A DNA stretch of 64,000 nt from the NCBI GenBank assembly GCA_051362555.1, contig CM120640.1, positions 24,290,225 through 24,354,224 on the forward strand, read 5' to 3'. Shown here one piece after another: positions 15,977-29,800 of this stretch. The notes under the pieces are model-generated. The model ran no database searches. It was not told the DNA's origin and worked only from the letters and a program-made list of their open reading frames with translations. A program made the translations under genes and the position numbers. Each line of letters starts with the position of its first letter. Positions within the stretch are counted from its first letter, which is position 1. The DNA is from Lingula anatina (taxonomy: Eukaryota > Animalia > Brachiopoda).

Positions 15977-17007
15977 AATTGACATTTGATGAAACTACTT
16001 TGTATCGTGTGCCTCGTAGAAAACTGGCGGTCAACACGCTATTTAGATAGAATAGATTATGGTAGGGAAAAATACTAGTTTTTATTCGGATCAGAACGGC
16101 TTTATTTTTGATATGAAAAAAAAAAAGAATACCCATTTTTTGTATCTAATATATATCTAGTATTTCGAATCTTATCTATCAGGATAGGAAATGAAATTCT
16201 GAAATGATGAAAGCGCTAAAAAAGATGTAATAATATACAGGAACCTGGATTATACCGAGTTGAATGTTTTATATTTATTGTATCTTTTATAGGTCGAATG
16301 AAATAAATGATGATGCTAATAATCAAAGCATTCAAGTATATTGAAACAATTCATTCATTGTATCAATGTGTAATTGTAAGTTAAATTTTACACATTTTTA
16401 AATAAATATTATACATTTTAATTCATTTACAGTATTGTAATAAAAAATGTCATCTATTGTATATTTGCCTAACTAAGCTGTGATAAAAATGTATCCTTGT
16501 TCCCTCCTTGGCAAAATCCTGGACAGACAGTGGACGGTCGAAAAAAGTATTGTCCAAGAAACTACAGAACACTGGTTCCTGTATTGCGTATTTATAATTA
16601 TAATAATAAAAATAAATTTGTTACAATTGTCAGAGTGCAGTTAAAATATCTGTATTATTTTTAGCAAGAGTGAAAGTTTCGATCAAGTATGAAATCGTTT
16701 TTTCCTTCAAACATAAACTGTCACCTTTGTGCCGATGTATTTTTCTCGTACACAGCATTTTCATCTACAAGTCGTAGTAATTAAATAATCACCAACATCT
16801 GGTAATGAAAATAAATGAACTTTCCAGACAGCTGTAGATGATATTACTACCCAACATGTAGGCTACATATGTAAATTAACCATACCAGAGATTCTTCAGA
16901 ACTGAAAACAAGCTGTTGCCATACATAAAATACCTTGATCTACACAGCTTAACAGCAATTTCCAACTCCAGCTCTTGCAAAGACACGTCTCTCGTAAGCT
17001 TTAAGAC

Positions 17008-18036
17008 ATGTTTTGGATTTTATTCATCGCACACATTGGTTTTGTATTCTCTCAATGTGATCCGCGTTCCTGTACTCTACCTAGATGTCATTGCGCGGGG
17101 TACAACTCCCCGGGAGGTTTACAAACCCGTGATACGCCACAGATGGTGGTTCTTTCCTTTGATGATGCAGTGAACGATCACAATGTCGATTTTTACCGCC
17201 GCTTGTTCACGGCAAAACGACGGAACCCAAATGGCTGTCCAATCACTGGAACTTTCTATGTCTCTGACGAAGGCCGTACGGATTACAGTTATGTTCAAAG
17301 ATTGTATCAGAAAGGGCATTCTATCGCTACTCACAGCGAAACCCATCGTTACCCGGCGAGCTGGTGGGAAAAGGCCTCCTTAAGGAAATTGGCAATAGAA
17401 CTGGAAGGGCATAGAAGGAGTATGGCAAAACTTGCAAAGATACCTTACGAACATTTAATCGGAGCGAGAGTCCCGTTTCTTCAACAGTCGGGCGACAAAC
17501 TTTACACCGTTTTAGAATATTACGATTTTACGTTTGATTCCTCATTCTTAACAGGACCAACCAACAGGGATGAATTCCTGCACTATCTTCCAGTGTGGCC
17601 TTTCACGTTAGACTACCCCCCAGATCCCAGCTTCCATCCTTTCCTGTGTGATCTCCCTCCATGTCCAACCAAAAGCTATCCAGGTTTGTGGGAGGTTCCA
17701 GTCATACGGATGCTCGGACACACGGACATGTGCGCCATGGCGGACAGTTGTGAGATGAAGGATGAAATCGACACCGTGGAATACCTCAACATGAACTTCA
17801 AACGCCACTACGAAGGCAACCGCGCGCCCTTCATCCTTTCAATGCACGCAACATGGTTCACCAGATCTTCATTCACTTTTAACGCGGTTGAACGGTTTTT
17901 GGACAAACTTTTGGAACTCCCAGACGTCTGGGTAGTCAGCGTGGAGCAGGTGCTAGAGTGGATGCAGAGACCGACGCCTTTAAGTAAAATGAAAGACTTT
18001 GAGCCTTGGCTAGCCACACGTTGGTGTAAAAAGTAA
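17008..18036 (+). CDS. Secreted polysaccharide/chitin deacetylase-like protein (CE4, NodB homology), copy A, 342 aa, intronless
   Basis: Hydrophobic signal peptide; C-x4-CTLPRCHC N-terminus. CE4 motifs SFDDAV, HSETH, RVPF, DSS, SMHATWF, plus WPFTLD, GLWEVP and NFKRHYEGNRAPF typical of animal chitin deacetylase catalytic domains. Confidence 0.93.
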   Translation: MFWILFIAHIGFVFSQCDPRSCTLPRCHCAGYNSPGGLQTRDTPQMVVLSFDDAVNDHNVDFYRRLFTAKRRNPNGCPITGTFYVSDEGRTDYSYVQRLYQKGHSIATHSETHRYPASWWEKASLRKLAIELEGHRRSMAKLAKIPYEHLIGARVPFLQQSGDKLYTVLEYYDFTFDSSFLTGPTNRDEFLHYLPVWPFTLDYPPDPSFHPFLCDLPPCPTKSYPGLWEVPVIRMLGHTDMCAMADSCEMKDEIDTVEYLNMNFKRHYEGNRAPFILSMHATWFTRSSFTFNAVERFLDKLLELPDVWVVSVEQVLEWMQRPTPLSKMKDFEPWLATRWCKK

Positions 18037-19423: not shown

Positions 19424-20500
19424 ATGTCTCTTTCAGAAGAGACTATATTTCGATTCCTACTGGTGACATCTATTCTGTCTGTTGGTGTTAGTTTCTACCA
19501 TTGTAGTCCCGACAACTGTAAGCTCCCAGAGTGTCAATGTCTGAGTTACGACCCTCCAAATGGACTAAATATTGCAGAGACTCCACAGTTCGTTCTGCTC
19601 AGCTTTGACGACGCAGTCACGCAGAACAATTTTAAGTTTTTCGCAGAAATATTTTCCGATGGACTTAAAAATCCGAACGACTGTCTGATCAGCGCAACTT
19701 TTTATGTTTCGGATGAACTGAACACAAATTATAAACTTGTAGAAACACTCTTTCAAGACGGTAATACCATAAGCAGCCATAGTTCAACACATAGGTTCCC
19801 ACAGAGTTGGTGGATCACAGCCTCGGAAACCCAACTGGCGGCAGAATTCGATGGCCAGAGAAGAGTGCTGGCACTACGAGGTCATATCCCTTACCAAAAA
19901 ATTATGGGGATGAGGATCCCGTTCCTTCAGCAGGGCGGGAACACCCCATACCGTATGGCGCAATCGTATCGATTTAAATATGACTCTTCATTTGTGACTG
20001 GACCGAATAATCACAGGGGATTTCTCAACTACAGGCCACCCTGGCCGTTCACACTCAATCACCAGCCGGGTCGGTCAGTGTTCCCATTCATATGTGACAT
20101 AGGACCGTGCCCCACGGAGTCTTTTCCTGGGCTCTGGGAAATTCCCCTTGTTCGCATGCTGGGTCCTAACGGACAAACCTGCGCGATGGCAGATGGCTGT
20201 AAAACAACCAGTGCGACAGAAACTTACGACTTTTTAATGAACAATTTTCAAAGACATTACAATGGAAATCGCGCGCCGTTTGGTATAAATCTGCATGCGA
20301 CATGGTTCGAACGCAACCCTCATGCCCTCCCAGCTTTAAGGCGGTTTCTACGTGAGATGTCCACTCACAAAGACGTGTGGGTTGTAGGAGCAGAGATGTT
20401 GATAGATTGGGCGAGAAATCCCATTCCAAACCGCGCCCTTTCGACTCACGTCCCATGGAAATACGCAAGAGGATGCCGTAGGGAATGCGACTGCAAATAA
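19424..20500 (+). CDS. Secreted polysaccharide/chitin deacetylase-like protein (CE4), copy B, 358 aa, intronless
   Basis: First true ATG is at 19424 (the ORF track starts at TTG 19403). Signal-like N-terminus; motifs SFDDAV, HSSTH, RIPF, YDSS, NLHATWF. Collinear paralogue of copy A. Confidence 0.93.
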   Translation: MSLSEETIFRFLLVTSILSVGVSFYHCSPDNCKLPECQCLSYDPPNGLNIAETPQFVLLSFDDAVTQNNFKFFAEIFSDGLKNPNDCLISATFYVSDELNTNYKLVETLFQDGNTISSHSSTHRFPQSWWITASETQLAAEFDGQRRVLALRGHIPYQKIMGMRIPFLQQGGNTPYRMAQSYRFKYDSSFVTGPNNHRGFLNYRPPWPFTLNHQPGRSVFPFICDIGPCPTESFPGLWEIPLVRMLGPNGQTCAMADGCKTTSATETYDFLMNNFQRHYNGNRAPFGINLHATWFERNPHALPALRRFLREMSTHKDVWVVGAEMLIDWARNPIPNRALSTHVPWKYARGCRRECDCK

Positions 20501-21654
20501 AAAAATTCCACGGCGACAAGTAATTTGGTTGTTCAAGACTTACTTTTCACGACTTGATGAAAATTTATCTCCTTTAAAACACTTGCAATATACGTTTCAA
20601 ATATGTATCTATTCAATTGGAAAAGAAACATTTGCGCCTCTGCAGGATAGGGCGATTTCCTAGGAATATTAGTATCAATAAATTTATAACTTGCATTGTC
20701 ACTATCGCAATTTATTAACTGAAAGTTTTTGGAACAATAACTCTATTGTGTGAGGATCGATTGGTAAATTCCAAATTCAAGAGTTTGGACTAAAAGTGGC
20801 ATTCTACGCTTTTGTTATGCTGGGTTCGACAGTTTTAAGGCCAAGCTTTTACAGTAAGAACAACTCATCCAAATCGTATATATTGCACATTGCCTTACAT
20901 TACAATGATAACCATAAGCATTGCAGATCTGCATAATTTATTTTATTAAAAATAACATTTCATATAAAATTAGGGCGATCTTGCATGTTCATTACGTCTT
21001 CTATACTCGTGTACTAATATGTTAAATGAGCACATTGTAAAACGAATATTAAACATTTGTATATAATAGGTTTCTTGGATATGTTCAAAGATATAAAAAT
21101 ATCTTGAGTTTCAAAATAAAAAACCTCCTCATCCAATAAAGGTTAATTACAGGAATTACAACACTAAATAACCATCATTGTTGATAAAAATATGGTATAG
21201 TAAATATGTGATCAAACTACCGTTTATAAACTAAGCATTATTCTGTAGATGGTGTGCAAAAAGCAGATTATATTCTTTAACCCTCCAGGTTTCTATATGG
21301 AATCTTTTATCTAAAACCTATATGTTATTAACATTATTTTGTGATAAAATATGACACAATGTAAAAATGCCTGGATCAAAACTATCCCTGAAATAACTAA
21401 AACAACAAAAAATTCAGGAAGCCTTATTCTGAACACAGTAAAAATGGACTAATAAGCATCCTCATGATGAAACAAAGTTACACCCTGAGTGGCAATTCAA
21501 ATAATATACTTTTTCATGTATAGCACAGTTTTCTTCAGAGCAATCAATCATTTACATGTCTTTTGCTCACCCCTTTTGGCAAGTTGAAATATTTGGTACA
21601 CTTTTTGCTGAAATTCTCATTTTTACATTTTACTTCTTTAATATCGCATTCACA

Positions 21655-21925
21655 AGTTGAGACATGGCTTTACAAATCCTGGAACTCAATATGGCGGACA
21701 TACATGAAAGAAAAACTGCCTAATCTTTTGATAGTCTCTCCGCCTCTCACAAGCCTCCCCATGCGTCGTCCCTGCGGGGGGTACAGTCATTAAATCTCGG
21801 CTCAATTGGGATGACACATGGGGAGGCGTGTGAGAGGTGGAGAGACTATTAAAAGATTACGCAGTTTTTCTTTCATGTACGTCCACCATATTTAGTTCCA
21901 GGATTTGTAAAGCCATGGCTCAACT
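21655..21925. repeat. Long inverted repeat (118-bp arms, 35-nt spacer), fold-back or MITE-like
   Basis: 21655-21772 versus the reverse complement of 21808-21925: 108/118 identical by hand with no gaps. Weaker similarity continues outward (atcgcatt / aatgcgat). Confidence 0.9.
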
Positions 21926-21976
21926 CGTTGTTAATGCGATCTAAGTAGAGTGCAAACGTTGGGTGAAATTCTTTTC

Positions 21977-23601
21977 TCATTGCCTGCGATTGGGCTTTTG
22001 ATTCTTGGGTATGTTGCACTGTTTGAAATAATTGTCTCTAAAGTTTTGGTTTTCATTTTTAACATCTTCAATAGACTGGCGAGTTTCATAATCTGAAAAA
22101 TGTTGAAAATTCCATTCTAATTGCTTAATGTGAGAAACTTGGCCTACAAAGTTCCAAGGCAATTGCGAGTTGTAATCTACATTTTTAGCAAAGTTCCAAT
22201 TAACCCCTGATGTCTCATAATCAGTCTGCTGTGAAAACCCCCAATTTAATGTGGATAATGATGGCACCTGTGGCAAGAATCTCCAGTTAACTTGACTTTC
22301 CTGAGAGAGCTGATGGACAAAGTTCCAGTTCACATTCCCTCTGGGTGACGTCTGCTGAGTAAAGTTCCATCTAACATTTCCATCTTTTATTTGCTTCTGG
22401 AACCCCCAGTCAATGGAGGATTGCTGAGGTACTTGCTGAGAAAAGCACCAGTTAACACTTCCATTCTCAGGCACTTGTTTCTGAAACCCCCACCTTACAG
22501 TTGTTGTTTCTGGGGTCTGCTGGTTGAAATTCCAATTTATTTTTGTCTCGGAAAGTGGAAGTTGTTTTGGAAAACCACTGTGATATCGTCGAAGAAGTTT
22601 TAGTTGATTTCTGAAAGCCCAATTTACAGTGCTAGAATTAGGGCACTGTTCCAAAAAAGACCAGTTTAATGGAGGTAGAGGAAGCTGTTTGGAAAATCCC
22701 CAATTTACAGATCCAGTTTTTGATGTTTGTTGGGCGAAATTCCACCTCAGGGAACTTATATCTGGCAACCGTTGGTCAAAATTCCAGGGAACAGTACTGG
22801 CTTCATGGGATTGTTTGGTGAAATTCCAGGAAACGTCTGGCAGCTGACCTGTGGCCTATCAATATATAAAGATTTAGTTAGAAATTTTCATTCAATATTA
22901 AAAGATTTAGTTAGAAATTTTCATTCAATATTAAAAGATTTAGTTAGAAATTTTCATTCAATATTAAAAGATAAAAGGAAATATGAACATTACTCACTGT
23001 ACTTATTAAGACAAAATAAAAAAAGTAAATTAAAATATGATCCTTATTATAAGTTACATAGACTCTATAGATTTGAAGTTCTTATGTCAGTATCTTGGGA
23101 GATAAACTAATACTTTACCAGCAAACATTTCACTGACTGTAGGAAGATGGAATATTAGCCAGTAGCGCATCAATTTAATTCCCAACATTCTGACAAAAAA
23201 ACTTCCACAATTCTATTGCAATTCCATGCTTGATGGTTCAACAATATACAGAATATAGATTCTACACTGAAAATATGATTGGTGAGCTGTAAGAATTTAG
23301 ACTAGATTGATTCATTCAATTCCTAGCTAAAATGAAATATAAAACTGAAAGTGATTCAACTGAAATGAAGACATTAAAGTATACACTACATTTTGTTGAT
23401 CTAGATCAAAATAAATGACAAAAAAGCTTACAATCAAAGCTTATTTACAACCTGTTCAAAATTCCAGCTGACAGGTGAAGACAACAATGTATCAATGGTA
23501 ATGTCCTCTAGGTCTGCATGCCCTTCATGTAAGTCTGCCACTGAATCAATTTCGTCATCATATGAGAATTCCTGTAGCTCTATTTGATGCATGTCTTTCA
23601 T
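21977..23601 (-). CDS. Uncharacterised ~342-aa protein: acidic N-terminus plus ~19 tandem 13-15-aa [VLI]-x-W-x-F-x-x-Q repeats
   Basis: Exon 23601-23452 (or -23449) reads MKDMHQ...PVSWNFEQ. It joins in phase 0 to exon 22855-21977 (ATGQLPDVSWNFTKQ...NRRQ*), and the 23452 junction keeps the 14-residue W-to-W spacing. The 879-nt open frame in AT-rich DNA has periodicity that is clear in protein but not in DNA. The N-terminal structure is uncertain. Confidence 0.75.
22868..22972. repeat. 33-bp tandem repeat, three exact copies plus a partial
   Basis: aaagatttagttagaaattttcattcaatatta at 22868, 22901 and 22934. It explains the KDLVRNFHSIL repeat in spurious ORF 22727..23110. Confidence 0.95.
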
Positions 23602-24212
23602 AAGGTGAGACCTCCCCAATCCAGGGTTATCTACAAACTGTACTTTTTAAACTTGGGTAAAGAACTGAAAAGGGAAAAATTGGAAATTTTTGAGCAATAC
23701 AAACTTTAAGCTGTGCATGTTATTCCTATAATACCCCAATCCTTGGACAAATCATTTGTATTCTTTGGCCAAGCCCCATCTAATTGCAATTGATGCAATA
23801 CTCTGTGCTACCATTTTATATCAGCATTTAAAATAAAATAGATAACAATGAAATAGGACACAGCCTCTCAGCCAACACTTCAATAAAATAGTCTTTTAAT
23901 TATTAAGTATATTATTGGATATTAATTAAAATCAATTATAGTTATAAGCTTCTTCCTCAGTAACTTACTTCAATTTTCTTTTAACATAATATTGTTCACT
24001 GTACAACTTCAAGCTTCTGGTTGCAATTTTACTTTAAATAAACTATTATTATTATTATTATTATTATTATTCTTCTAAAAAAGTACAGGTACATACAGAT
24101 GGAAGTTGTAAGCATATATTCAAATGCAAAGAAAGGAAACACACTGTATATTTACGAATATGAAATATCACAACAATCAAGGTTTAAATGTCTGTTGGTT
24201 TACATGTCACTA

Positions 24213-24613: not shown

Positions 24614-24930
24614 CCCGAATTTACAGTCAGCCAAATAAACCATGTAGCAGAATACTATACCTGCCTGTCTCAGGTGTTATGGGTGAAAAGCAAATCAAAG
24701 AACGTGAATATAACCATGCACAGGCTGGTTATTACATAATGTTACGGTCATTTGGATACCTTGCATCTTTATGTTTTACTTCTAGCTAAGGACAGGTAGC
24801 TGGGTTAATGCTATTGCAATGGTTAATGTTGAGTTGGGTTCCTATGGGCCAATACAAAATTTGACTTTGGGTAACTCCAAGCGCGGACAGCATATTATTA
24901 TTAAAAAGAAATATGAATACGTATCAGATC

Positions 24931-25078
24931 GGGGGCGTCTCGATAGTCCGAAGGTTCATTGGTCCGAAAAGTGGTTACGTTTTCATCGATTTTTTAATCA
25001 AGGGTTCATTGGTCCGAAGGTTATATAGTGAACATTCGGATCAATGAACCTTCGGACTCATCAGATCGATACGAGCCC
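24931..25078. mobile_element. Small non-autonomous DNA-transposon-like element with inverted termini and internal ggttcattggtccgaa units
   Basis: The left end agtccgaaggttcattggtccgaa matches the reverse complement of the right end ttcggatcaatgaaccttcggact at 23/24. The unit is repeated directly near 25003-25020. Confidence 0.65.
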
Positions 25079-25443
25079 ATACACAAGACTACCTGGTATG
25101 CTGCCACCGTACTGTAGCCTTATATAAATTTTTAAGTACTTACTGCAAAGCATGGAAGGGCAATAACTGAGGCAAATTGTATTTGTGACGTGCATTTTGC
25201 TCACAGGTACTCGTACAGTACACAGTACAATGTACAACTACAAGTGTCGCCAAGTGCACAAATTACATAATGCCATAAACAATCTACCGCAGGTCAGACG
25301 AAGTTGCTATGGCTTTACACTGAAGCAATGCTTAACCGCGAGTCCAGCTAGCTGACGCAGCATCCACTGAATTTGGCATCTCTTTGACTGTCACTTTAAA
25401 AACTGTCAAGACCCCAATGTCACCTTCGCAATATCATACTCAC

Positions 25444-25495: not shown

Positions 25496-26860
25496 GAAAT
25501 TGAGGTCAGCAAAACAAAAGCACCTGATGTATATTATGGCCCTCGCCAATCAGTCGTTTTCACACTTTTTACATAAAATTACTCAACCAAGCATAGAAAA
25601 AAAATCAACGTCTTTTATCGCGGTAATTTATTTGACCTGCCAAAACATACGAGCATCTATTCAAATACATGAAATATATTTGAGTTCTTATTTTGCGACC
25701 TTTATTCTTCCCAACCCTTAAAACAATGATAACGCTTCAACGACGCAGAAACCCAGAAATAATTGATTCAACTCTGACATGCACATTAACTAATAGCACA
25801 TGTTAAAACGAAAATAGTTTTTAGTTATAATAGTTATAGACCGTCACGTGTAAGGTCACTTGGGCCAAAACTGTGTGGCTTATGCTCATTCATTCAGTAG
25901 TCGGGGAATATGAAAGCGTAAAAAAATTGTTACTTTGTAACTTTAGAAACATAATATTTAGTGAATAAGCTGTCACTCTCTCATGCACGAGTGTGCAGTG
26001 CGTGCGCCTTTCTGTAATTTGCACGGCTTTGATAATCATTTCATGAGTAGAGGGAGGAGCATTAATTAGATCTACGTTAGATGTTTTTACGTTTATAGTT
26101 TACTACACTGTAGAATAATAACGCGTTTTTTCAAATGACAAATAAATAAATTTAATGCGAAATTATTCTGTTGAGGAATCGGACTACACACTCAAATAGC
26201 TACATGTACAACATCGATGCTGAGAGAGAGAGAGAGAGAGGTGAACTATATTAACGCATGCCGCATTATTTAAAATTTTTAATTTAAGTAACAAATGCAA
26301 CACTACCGGTATGTTTATCATGCTTCACTAAGACAGTGAACCGGCCGTACATAAAAGTAATAGAATTTTTTTTTTGAAAAAGCTGCCAGATAATTTTTTT
26401 CAAAATCTCGTAGTCGTATAGAACCCCCCATACGGTTAGCAAAACGGTCACTGTGTGAAAATACAATATTGTCTGTCAAAAACCCACAGGTGATTCATTT
26501 TGTGTCCTGGTTTCCTCTGTGGCTACTGTAGTCATTACACGTCTTCTAAAAAGTCAACCTCTCTTCTCTTGACCTCTGTTTGCATAAATTAATGCGCATG
26601 ACGTGGTTTTATATCCTCAAATGCATTAAGAATGCTGCTAAGTAAATGTTGGCGACCCCTCTTTAAAACTTACCCAAAAGACGTCAAAATTATACCATAT
26701 TAGCATTTAATGCTACTTACCCAAACATGCTTTCACCGAAACTGCACATGTGGGAAAGACGACGAAAAATAGTTCCCGGAAGTTAGTGCCACCTCTACCT
26801 GCCATATTGAATCCAGGAAGGTCTTTTTTGAAGTGTACGAGTAAATCGATAAAGGAGAAA

Positions 26861-29800
26861 ATGGCATCAAGGAGTGAAAGAGACAAGCAGAAAGCTCTCC
26901 AAGAGAGACATCAAGCGATTTTGTCTGGCCTGTTGAAAGATGACGACAACAAGTATTGTGTAGACTGTGATGCTAAAGGTGAGCCGGTAAAATTAGGGGG
27001 TGTTTTCAAGTGTTGTCTGTTGACAGATTAGTTTTATTACTCGGTTCAGTCAGTGCCAGTAATGTTGTGAATCTTATCTTGCCCTTTTTGTCAAATAAAA
27101 TTTTATCGGAGAAAGGCATGTCACATAATCAAAGTACAACCAAAATATCACTGTTTACATAAAGACAAAATTAAAAAAAAAAAAACTCTTCCTCAGGCTC
27201 TGTGTGTTGCTTTATGTCCAGTCATCATGAGGTTGACCTTAGGGTGCCTTATTTATAAATAAGTCTAAACTAATAATATATCTGCTATCTTCTTTCTTAC
27301 TAGCCTGGTTAGTCTGCACATTTAGTTTACATGTACTTATTTTTATTCTTCATATTTCAGGACCACGATGGGCCTCTTGGAATATAGGTGTATTTCTCTG
27401 CATTCGCTGTGCTGGAATCCATAGGAATTTAGGTGTTCACATTTCAAAAGTGAAATCAGTTAATTTAGACACATGGACACCAGAGCAAATTGCTGTGAGT
27501 ATATTAAAGTAAAATCCATGAAGATGTTTGGAGTTGTCTTTTGAGATAAAGAATTCAGTTATATTCGGTTATGTGTACAGGAAAATTAAGATGATAAAAT
27601 GTATACTCTTAACAGGTATTACAATTCTGTAAGTACTTGGCCATCTTTGTATTTTTAGTCAAATTAGTTTTGATAATATATTAACCTCAGATGATGCAGG
27701 AGATGGGGAATAGCAGAGGACGAGCTGTCTATGAAGCATATCTGCCTGATAATTTCAGAAGACCACAGACCGACTCGTATCCTTGCCTTGTGCTTATTAG
27801 AGTTTTGTAGTAAAATATATTTAAAATATGCAGTGTACTATTATTCATAGCTGGTTGTAAGTTCATGTCTGCCAATTCCAGAATAAATGTTTCATTATTC
27901 TAAATTATTTTGTACTGTAAATAGAAGCTTTTGTCTTATTTGAAAACTTTGTAGAAGCATTAGTCTATTTTTTTCTGTTTACATTTTGATTTTGTACTAC
28001 AGAACTTTGCTTTGAATTTCATTTACCTCAACTTTGAGACCATTGGAAATTCTGATAAGGCAAAAGTATGAACAGAAGAAATATATGGCTAAAGAATTTG
28101 TTCCCCCAGTTATTAAGATACCAGTAAGTTGTTGGGTGTATCATGCATGGACTTTTCAAAAAATGTTTAATGTTGTTCATATGTAAACGCATACTGGGGT
28201 AGTGCTAGCAGTTTTTTTCACGTAGCCAAATCACCACTTTTTTGTCAATTTCTTATCCAAATGGTTATAATTTGACCTTTTTGTTTAGCCAATTTAAGTC
28301 AGTTTTAGCATTCGGCTAAATTGGCAAGTGTTAGCGCTACCCCAGGCATATATTTGCTGCATGATCTTGCTGTGAATTATACATCATACTTTGAGTTGGA
28401 ATGCCATATGTTATGTTGTATAGAAATGTTTTTTGTGAAGTACTATCCCATTGGCACATATTTTTTGTTTTATATATATGTGTTTATTGTTCCCTAACTC
28501 ACTTTTACACAGTCCTTTAGAACATTTTATACGGGATAAGTATGAGAGGAAAAAATACATGGCCAAAGAATGGGTGCCCCCTCGGCCTGCATTTTCAGTT
28601 TCGGTAAGTGGTTTCTTTGAAAAGGCATATCTTTAAAACTAAGACTTCTTTAAAAAGGGCAGTGTGTTGTTTTTTAAAAAAATCACCAATTTTTCAGGTG
28701 CATGTGCATTTTTATTTTTTGTTTTTGATTTTATTTTGATTTTTGGCAGTGCTTTGTGTTTTCTTTTCTTTTTTTATTTGTTTAGAATATTGCTTTTCAA
28801 TAGCTACCTGTTGTTCACTGTTCAATGGATTTTTCTGTATTGATTGTTTTTTCTTTTTATGGTTTAACATGTGTATTAAATTTTTATTCAAGGTTTCTTG
28901 AAATCTTTTTTACTATCCAATGTCTAAAACATGGATTCAGACTTTTGATACAATGTCAAACAAATTATCGAAAATATTTCCAAATTTTTTTGTGTTATTT
29001 TTTGATAAAGCTTCACAAGAAGAATCACAATTCAATATTGATTTTCATTACTAGGATGTTTCAGGATTTGCATTAAGAGTATAATTAAGGTTTAAAAGCT
29101 ATCATTTTGGGAAGTTTTCTCAATTGTATTTTAAGTCATTCAATTAAGTGATTAATTCTATTTGTTTTCAGGCTGTTGAAGATGAGAACAAGAAGAAGAA
29201 AGAAAGGCCTAAACCTAAAGCAAATCCAGTGCAGTTAAATGCTGTAAGTATAAATGCATGCAAAATGTTTGTAATCTTTGTGGAATGATCATCTATTCAT
29301 ACTCTTAGAGTCAGTAAACTTGGTTGTTTTGCCCAAGAATATTTCATCACATTGAAATAAGCACTTTTTTATAGTTTCTCAAATATGTATTTCTCCATCT
29401 AAGAAGATATTGGGGTAAAATTAAGATGATCCCATGATACAAAATACTCTCCATTTATTTTTACTCTATCAAGTCAATTTTTATTTCAGACCGCAAGGCC
29501 AAATAGTAGTGCCAAACCTGCAGGTGCAGTGATGACAAATGGAGAGGTTTCTGCTGCCAAGCAAGAACCACCAAAGGCAAAACAAGCCTCTAATACTGAT
29601 GACTTATTAGGTTTAGGTAGGGCATCTTCATCTAATGTAACTCATAGTTTACTTTATTGAAGTCTTTTTGCTTCGAATTTTTTCTTGGCATGATGTTAGA
29701 AAAGAAGAGATGATGGACATTTGAATTATTTGTGTGACCCTTTTTTTCCCCAGATACACCTTCAGCTCCAGCATCATCCTCGAGTTCTGATCTCTTTGGT

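Follow-up and report, generated by a model that had tools for sequence, protein, structure and literature searches.

A nineteen-unit W-x-F repeat protein of Lingula anatina and the unannotated, expressed animal family to which it belongs

Introduction

The Xin actin-binding repeat (XIRP1/2) has a W-x-F core consensus and a 16-residue period. Amyloids of the HET-s/CsgA kind hold conserved Asn/Gln ladder positions and keep Pro out of their strands. The repeat motif treated here may also resemble PP1 RVxF, LC8, delta-COP WxW and shuffled-AIM. Xin is reported from vertebrates only, with 26-28 units (PMC2478706). WXF is the described MO25/CAB39-binding motif of STRAD, MST3, MST4 and YSK1, and it stands there once, after the kinase domain (PMC3725419).

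The window is the whole stretch of Lingula anatina DNA that was analysed, 64 kb in length, and all coordinates are given within it. Its minus strand encodes, at 23601-21977, a protein that an initial annotation took for an orphan built of about 19 Trp/Phe units. The likeness to Xin lies in the tandem short intracellular repeat, but the Pfam Xin profile matches neither exon 3 (E≤1) nor 11 relatives (E≤0.01) and the period is 14 rather than 16, so membership is ruled out. The actin SFM motif, helical with P1/P4/P8/P9 anchors (PMC13364712), is ruled out as well. The 18 Lingula copies do contain the MO25-type tripeptide, and MO25 binding might be proposed by analogy; these copies, however, are evenly spaced and accompanied by no kinase domain. 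What emerges is real and new: a family of animal proteins, expressed and without annotation, whose repeat is undescribed and which takes its place among short beta-repeat proteins, a known kind.

Repeat array

Eighteen units fit [VLI]-x-W-x-F and one is degenerate (unit 8, Y-H-S-G-F, at 22585), giving 19 and upholding the annotated number; when the protein was shuffled 100,000 times, no shuffle held more than 4 copies of the motif, against 18 observed. All 18 Trp of the protein sit within the motif. Spacings are 13-15, as had been stated, except for a single gap of 29 that spans the degenerate unit, and Gln occupies +5 in 14/18 of the motif units. Units 2-19, a 14-residue [VIL]-x-W-x-F-x-x-Q-[LTV] repeat, lie at 22097-22855 (minus strand). 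GRAVY is -0.92. Across the 64-kb window the motif clusters at 21977-23601 alone.

As DNA the units are highly diverged (mean identity 46%, range 31-67%), their F and Q positions use mixed synonymous codons, and Tandem Repeats Finder reports no DNA array in the coding exons. Among the 40 variants listed of 106, 32 are coding, 17 of them silent and 15 replacements, which gives a pN/pS of ~0.23 on these listed variants; none of the 15 listed replacements falls at W, F(+2) or +5. The gene is thus shown to be under purifying selection, and the earlier view that protein-level selection lies behind the diverged DNA units is supported.

Gene structure and transcription

RNA reads were taken from 8 of 9 listed runs, the minus strand being the one read in stranded libraries. 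Both coding exons and the intron at 22856-23451 are seen in 8/8 runs, with 20, 11, 6 and 12 joint reads in four runs and 28, 16, 10 and 4 in the four others; the check on transcription that had been proposed therefore finds the gene expressed and spliced. The intron (minus strand, RNA joints) is of phase 0 and separates units 1 and 2, and the encoded protein has 50 + 292 = 342 residues. A minisatellite (33-bp x 3.5) lies inside the intron at 22859-22972. An 18-nt mini-exon candidate there was rejected, depth being nil at 22890-23309.

Upstream, a non-coding first exon lies at 26488-26620 (minus strand); its donor at 26488 is shown by a 23664/26488 joint (CT..AC, 4 reads, run X1) and its 5′ end is approximate. 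A few reads suggest alternative 5′ exons near 25150-25200 and 25444. Exon 2 (23452-23664, minus strand, by read depth and joints) holds 5′UTR, start codon, the acidic N-terminal region and unit 1. Upstream of the ATG at 23601 the frame is closed by a stop at 23649-23647, and downstream a second Met follows at 23592. Runs X7-X9 have loose ends by which the first ATG appears changed, as well as a 1-nt deletion at 23604, so Met4 may be the common start.

The basic C-terminal tail and stop codon occupy 21977-22018 (minus strand). The stop codon carries variants at 21978 and 21979 in runs X8 and X9, in which the frame runs on for ~11 codons. The 3′UTR is placed at 21000-21976 (minus strand, end approximate) from stranded depth that reaches ~21000. 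It contains, at ~21640-21945, a palindromic MITE-like insertion of ~305 bp with inverted arms, which is polymorphic because a 21638/21942 joint in run X7 skips 303 nt there.

No hydrophobic stretch is present at the N-terminus or as a membrane segment (the top 9-residue hydropathy in the first 40 residues is 0.52); judged by hydropathy rather than a dedicated predictor, the main model has no signal peptide, in agreement with the first reading.

The animal family

A phmmer search over 1.84 billion representatives gave 155 matches, of which 150 were listed, and 11 of those listed are W-x-F relatives of the same design. The protein is therefore no orphan: it belongs to an animal family that has, in addition, a phage-type look-alike. 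The Lingula repeat protein itself is absent from the protein collections searched. One relative bears a name, a Lamellibrachia satsuma (tubeworm) protein classed as hypothetical, and the other ten are ENA, Logan or JGI records; one relative comes from a 1.3-kb contig without introns. Exactly 19 units are found in 9/9 full-length members (eight relatives and the Lingula protein), a count that omits three fragments and takes P0002 only beyond residue 1130. The 19 units cover 252-261 residues in these members at ~30% identity, which is also the level between brachiopod and annelid members, and a tree of the nine has two supported branches only.

Spacing in the family is exactly 14 in 126/169 cases and within 13-15 in 144/169. 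In 29/29 spacings other than 14 (up to 20) the +6 residue stays hydrophobic or small, which places the indels in the linker that follows +6. Hydrophobic residues make up a fraction of 0.88 at -2, 1.0 at 0, 1.0 at +2 and 0.67 at +6, against at most 0.34 elsewhere; -4 (0.13) and +4 (0.02) are both polar. The alternating beta-type pattern claimed earlier is supported. Over 181 units, Asn stands at -1 in 22% and at +1 in 28%, and Gln at +5 in 55%. Members differ in how many of their 19 units have Asn at -1, from 0 to 9, K/R/H/P being frequent there instead, and Q+N makes up 10-23% across members (22.7% in the Lingula protein). Pro reaches 12-27% at -3, -1, +3 and +7 (12% at -1, 16% at +3) and 5.6-8.3% of repeat residues across members.

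The ends of the array are marked. A further hydrophobic-plus-polar signature sets units 2 and 19 apart in 16/18 cases, against 4/153 elsewhere (the pattern was picked by eye), and units 1-2 resemble units 18-19. An internal unit lacks W or is out of register in 6/9 members, the spacing being kept despite W loss. No odd/even dichotomy or two-unit periodicity was seen in the animal members.

Directly before unit 1, at 23473-23508 (minus strand), lies a conserved acidic N-cap, [ED]-I-x-I-D-x-L-[LI]-x-x-P, present in 9/9 full-length members; the 28 residues preceding unit 1 carry a net charge of -5 to -10. After unit 19, at 22019-22072 (minus strand), comes a conserved C-cap helix of the form E-x-x-x-F-[KR]-x-x-Y, in which E, F and Y are nearly invariant and I-V-N-F-Y follow one another in a heptad-like pattern. 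It is common to 8/9 full-length members, P0002 stopping inside it. A basic tail, with 5-8 K/R against 0-3 D/E, follows in 9/10 members that have a tail.

Database and literature searches

Searches of Pfam, NCBIfam and PDB by sequence profile returned no significant family for the Lingula protein or its relatives, which bears out the initial annotation's statement that the repeat belongs to no described family; LRR_10 (E 0.21) and Flo11 (E 0.34) were dismissed as weak matches. A word-indexed search with exon 3 found no member in 160 candidates, and with the family alignment as query it recovered, from 1486 candidates, three previously found members alone. A metagenome scan with exon 3 had no match among 60 stretches. 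Viral scans with the tubeworm protein and the phage-type protein P0015 gave no match either. In the literature covered, with most subscription journals outside its scope, no description was found by tubeworm accession or WxF-repeat terms. At the level of titles and abstract, papers on KVP40 gp15, a 14-residue fibre repeat and Schizotequatrovirus structure do not describe the repeat.

Phage-type repeats

At least 133 of the 150 listed matches (out of 155) are phage-type proteins that string together 8 units or more; in them a strict 14-residue Trp repeat occurs in 8-48 copies, often behind N-terminal LamG or beta-helix domains. PHROG 6079, a 'tail protein', is matched (~18-220, E 3e-5) by the Lingula protein and by 8/14 others tested. 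In Vibrio phages KVP40 and F86 the Trp repeat forms a C-terminal extension of gp15. These extensions lie outside the part that aligns to T4 gp15 and comprise ~20 Trp repeats in F86 (L001 3431-4945) and ~13 in KVP40 (L002 3299-4651). Four phage-type loci were retrieved, and in 3/3 annotated ones the gene stands amid terminase, portal or head-tail genes. A conserved gene of ~168 residues (PHROG 13135, unknown function) directly follows the Trp-repeat gene in 3/4 loci (L005 9288-9794, L006 3766-4272, L007 9740-10240), two of which come from near-identical phages; its product might cap or anchor the fibre. In phage-type proteins among P0011-P0151 a spacer of 16-19 residues recurs, most commonly every 4-6 units (59/96 intervals), and this longer spacer is possibly a regular kink in the fibre.

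Animal and phage repeats share the period of 14, an aliphatic residue at -2, W at 0, hydrophobic residues at +2 and +6, frequent N at +1 and frequent S at -7. When the units are compared register by register, agreement is highest in that of W (0.49), all others reaching at most 0.26. With W left out, the columns correlate at r = 0.27, for which the permutation p is 0.008 (0.03 if parity is kept, 0.02 on reversal), and hhalign gives the two profiles a probability of 96.8%, a value inflated by periodicity. The differences are equally plain. F at +2 is found in 98% of animal units but in 13/2611 phage-type units, where +2 is aliphatic; Q at +5 and frequent Pro are confined to the animal family, phage-type repeats being almost without Pro; the unit number is fixed at 19 in animals and varies from 8 to 48 in phage-type proteins; and the animal caps are absent from 137/137 phage-type proteins. 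For the two repeats common ancestry is plausible; convergence may also account for the likeness.

Structure prediction and covariation

No solved structure was found for the animal repeat, the phage repeat or the gp15 extensions. AlphaFold was run on exon 3, hence without the N-cap: from the single sequence it gave a meander with one strand per unit at pLDDT 38.6, and with 11 sequences short strands at pLDDT 42.8. A C-terminal helix (exon 3 residues 262-279) appears in both models and is the one part to reach pLDDT ~70, when the alignment is used. Searched against known structures, the low-confidence meander aligns to the barrels of PapC (Z 11.2, rmsd 2.8, 139 aligned), Mdm10 (Z 10.2, rmsd 6.6, 188) and Tom40 (Z 9.6, rmsd 5.4, 163), and dozens of unrelated barrels tie at Z 8-11, as any up-down meander would match. 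Foldseek of the same poor model against viral models returned nothing at E≤0.001, an uninformative result. For one phage-type protein the Atlas has a model (pLDDT 0.47), which is similar to those of other repeat proteins (TM 0.58-0.74).

Over ~2,300 phage-type units, coupling is seen between residues i and i+2 (in volume, r is -0.32 for -4/-2; in charge, it is -0.39 for -3/-1), and no covariation was found for an antiparallel or other inter-unit register. The i,i+2 signal supports beta-strands and lends no support to an antiparallel meander.

Discussion

The reading we put foremost, with confidence somewhat short of an even chance, is a rod of beta-repeats inside the cell, capped, constant in length and probably oligomeric. 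Each unit would form a single beta-strand that turns its V, W, F and +6 residues towards a buried core, with insertions accommodated in the loop following +6; the topology might be that of a parallel solenoid, a prism or an intertwined rope. The C-terminal helix would likely register two or three chains, as in phage fibres, and self-association would probably run through this helix and the V/W/F face. Stacked at 0.48 nm per unit, such a rod would measure ~9 nm and offer acidic and basic ends to partners, so that in cytosol or nucleus it might act as a spacer or scaffold between whatever these two ends bind. Support comes from the invariant 19, the regular spacing, the hydrophobic pattern, the caps, the end-unit signature, the confinement of indels to linkers, the low pN/pS, the likeness to phage virion genes, the i,i+2 covariation of phage-type units and the Atlas model; the fixed count and conserved caps together favour a folded unit over an array of motifs. 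Against the rod, Pro at -3, -1, +3 and +7 is unusual for fully hydrogen-bonded sheets, an internal unit is short of W or register in 6/9 members, GRAVY is negative, covariation gives no register between units, and the two AlphaFold runs are of low confidence and mutually inconsistent as predictions (meander versus short strands). Repeats that have diverged cease to recombine, and this by itself can also produce a fixed count.

Some of these same observations suit an extended chain that runs along a periodic partner and joins each unit to one subunit by beta-strand addition, the main competitor, though a rather unlikely one. Tubulin monomers and phage tail rings repeat at roughly 4 nm. Fourteen extended residues span ~4.6-4.9 nm, near such a lattice, and 19 units would then make a ruler of ~80 nm (the fully extended chain is computed at up to ~88 nm). 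Neither AlphaFold model folds with confidence on its own, Pro is found at alternate positions only, as in an edge strand, the spacing survives loss of W, the basic tail is conserved, and a similar repeat is joined, in KVP40 and F86, to gp15, the protein that caps the tail as a hexameric terminator (PMC12929629). An alpha/beta tubulin lattice might, however, impose the two-unit periodicity that is absent here, one named animal protein among 155 matches (150 listed) is unlike the record of conserved microtubule proteins, and the N-terminal LamG or beta-helix domains of many phage-type proteins suit free fibres. A protein that is disordered and acts as a multivalent scaffold or in condensates, its W-x-F words being docking motifs or stickers in the manner of the MO25-binding WXF motif, would account for 18 such words in polar linkers and for expression in all eight runs. 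We consider it improbable: an array of motifs needs neither an exact period of 14, 19 copies, a conserved +5/+6 nor special end units, and the kinases described carry a single motif each (PMC3725419). Still a little less probable is a closed antiparallel barrel or curled sheet of 19 strands, aromatic-lined and VDAC/Tom40-shaped, that binds lipid or another hydrophobic ligand. Mitochondrial barrels have 19 strands (PMC7586230), the same number as the invariant unit count, units 1-2 resemble 18-19, each of the 19 elements is of ~14 residues, and the meander model aligns to PapC, Mdm10 and Tom40. That alignment is a weak fold match from a model at pLDDT 38.6. No sequence match to VDAC, Tom40 or Mdm10 exists, no porin Pfam profile matches exon 3 or the 11 relatives, polar -4 and +4 leave the repeat short of lipid-facing hydrophobic positions, the units follow one identical pattern in every position of the array with no odd/even dichotomy, the C-terminus is helical and basic, and phage-type units show counts of 8-48 without antiparallel covariation.

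Both named carriers, one a brachiopod and the other an annelid, build chitin bristles. Following the lead of the initial annotation, the protein could be a functional amyloid, or a secreted chitin-binding structural protein working with neighbouring chitin deacetylases, and its Q+N content of 22.7%, the two adjoining chitin-deacetylase-like genes and the bristles of the carriers speak for this; Lingula chaetae are mentioned in PMC4595640. The nearer of these genes (19424-20500, plus strand; context only) matches Pfam Polysacc_deac_1 and PDB chitin deacetylases, and its product is 99% identical to Lingula anatina LOC112042631. Its depth is ~0-1x in four runs (tissues unknown) in which the repeat gene reaches 5-35x, and the first exon of the repeat gene faces an ArfGAP gene instead, so the proposed link to chitin deacetylases was not borne out. 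The hallmarks of a secreted chitin-binding protein, a signal peptide and co-expression with chitin-modifying genes, were not found by hydropathy and in those four runs. Nor did the proposed Asn/Gln ladders survive: the 181 animal units show neither a ladder of the HET-s/CsgA type nor exclusion of Pro, with N at -1 in as few as none of 19 units, Q+N as low as 10% and Pro at four positions of the repeat. Because Asn ladders are unconserved and the deacetylase is nearly unread, the amyloid and chitin-binding readings are weak, and we regard them as very improbable.

Counts so fixed usually indicate a ruler, a ring or a match to a lattice. An early lophotrochozoan may have captured and domesticated a phage virion-fibre repeat, which then gained introns, end caps and the W-x-F core and was frozen at 19 because the protein either measures length, like a molecular ruler, or closes into a ring or barrel of 19 members; we hold this history to be doubtful. 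If true, a phage-derived structural protein would reside in animal cytoplasm, its fold unsolved in both hosts. One structure would inform the animal and phage groups together, showing whether the animal borrowed a phage fibre. The comparison also exposes a common, structurally unsolved 14-residue Trp repeat of phage head and neck genes, KVP40 gp15 included.

Surrounding sequence

An ArfGAP gene of the SMAP type on the plus strand (ATG ~26861) is arranged head-to-head with the non-coding first exon and was identified by an ArfGap Pfam match on its next exon. The first-exon donor is <400 bp from the ArfGAP start codon, and 26488-26861 is a probable bidirectional promoter common to both genes. 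The genes at 17005-18036 and 19424-20500 are tandem, single-exon, catalytic-domain-only chitin-deacetylase-like genes with hydrophobic N-termini. In the first intron, a short interspersed repeat at 24930-25060 collects many reads on both strands from elsewhere in the transcriptome, and the MITE-like element at 21640-21945 likewise draws many repeat-derived reads. Runs X7-X9 are ~5% divergent from the window sequence, and all three differ from it around the first ATG; they may represent a distinct population or a cryptic species under one label.
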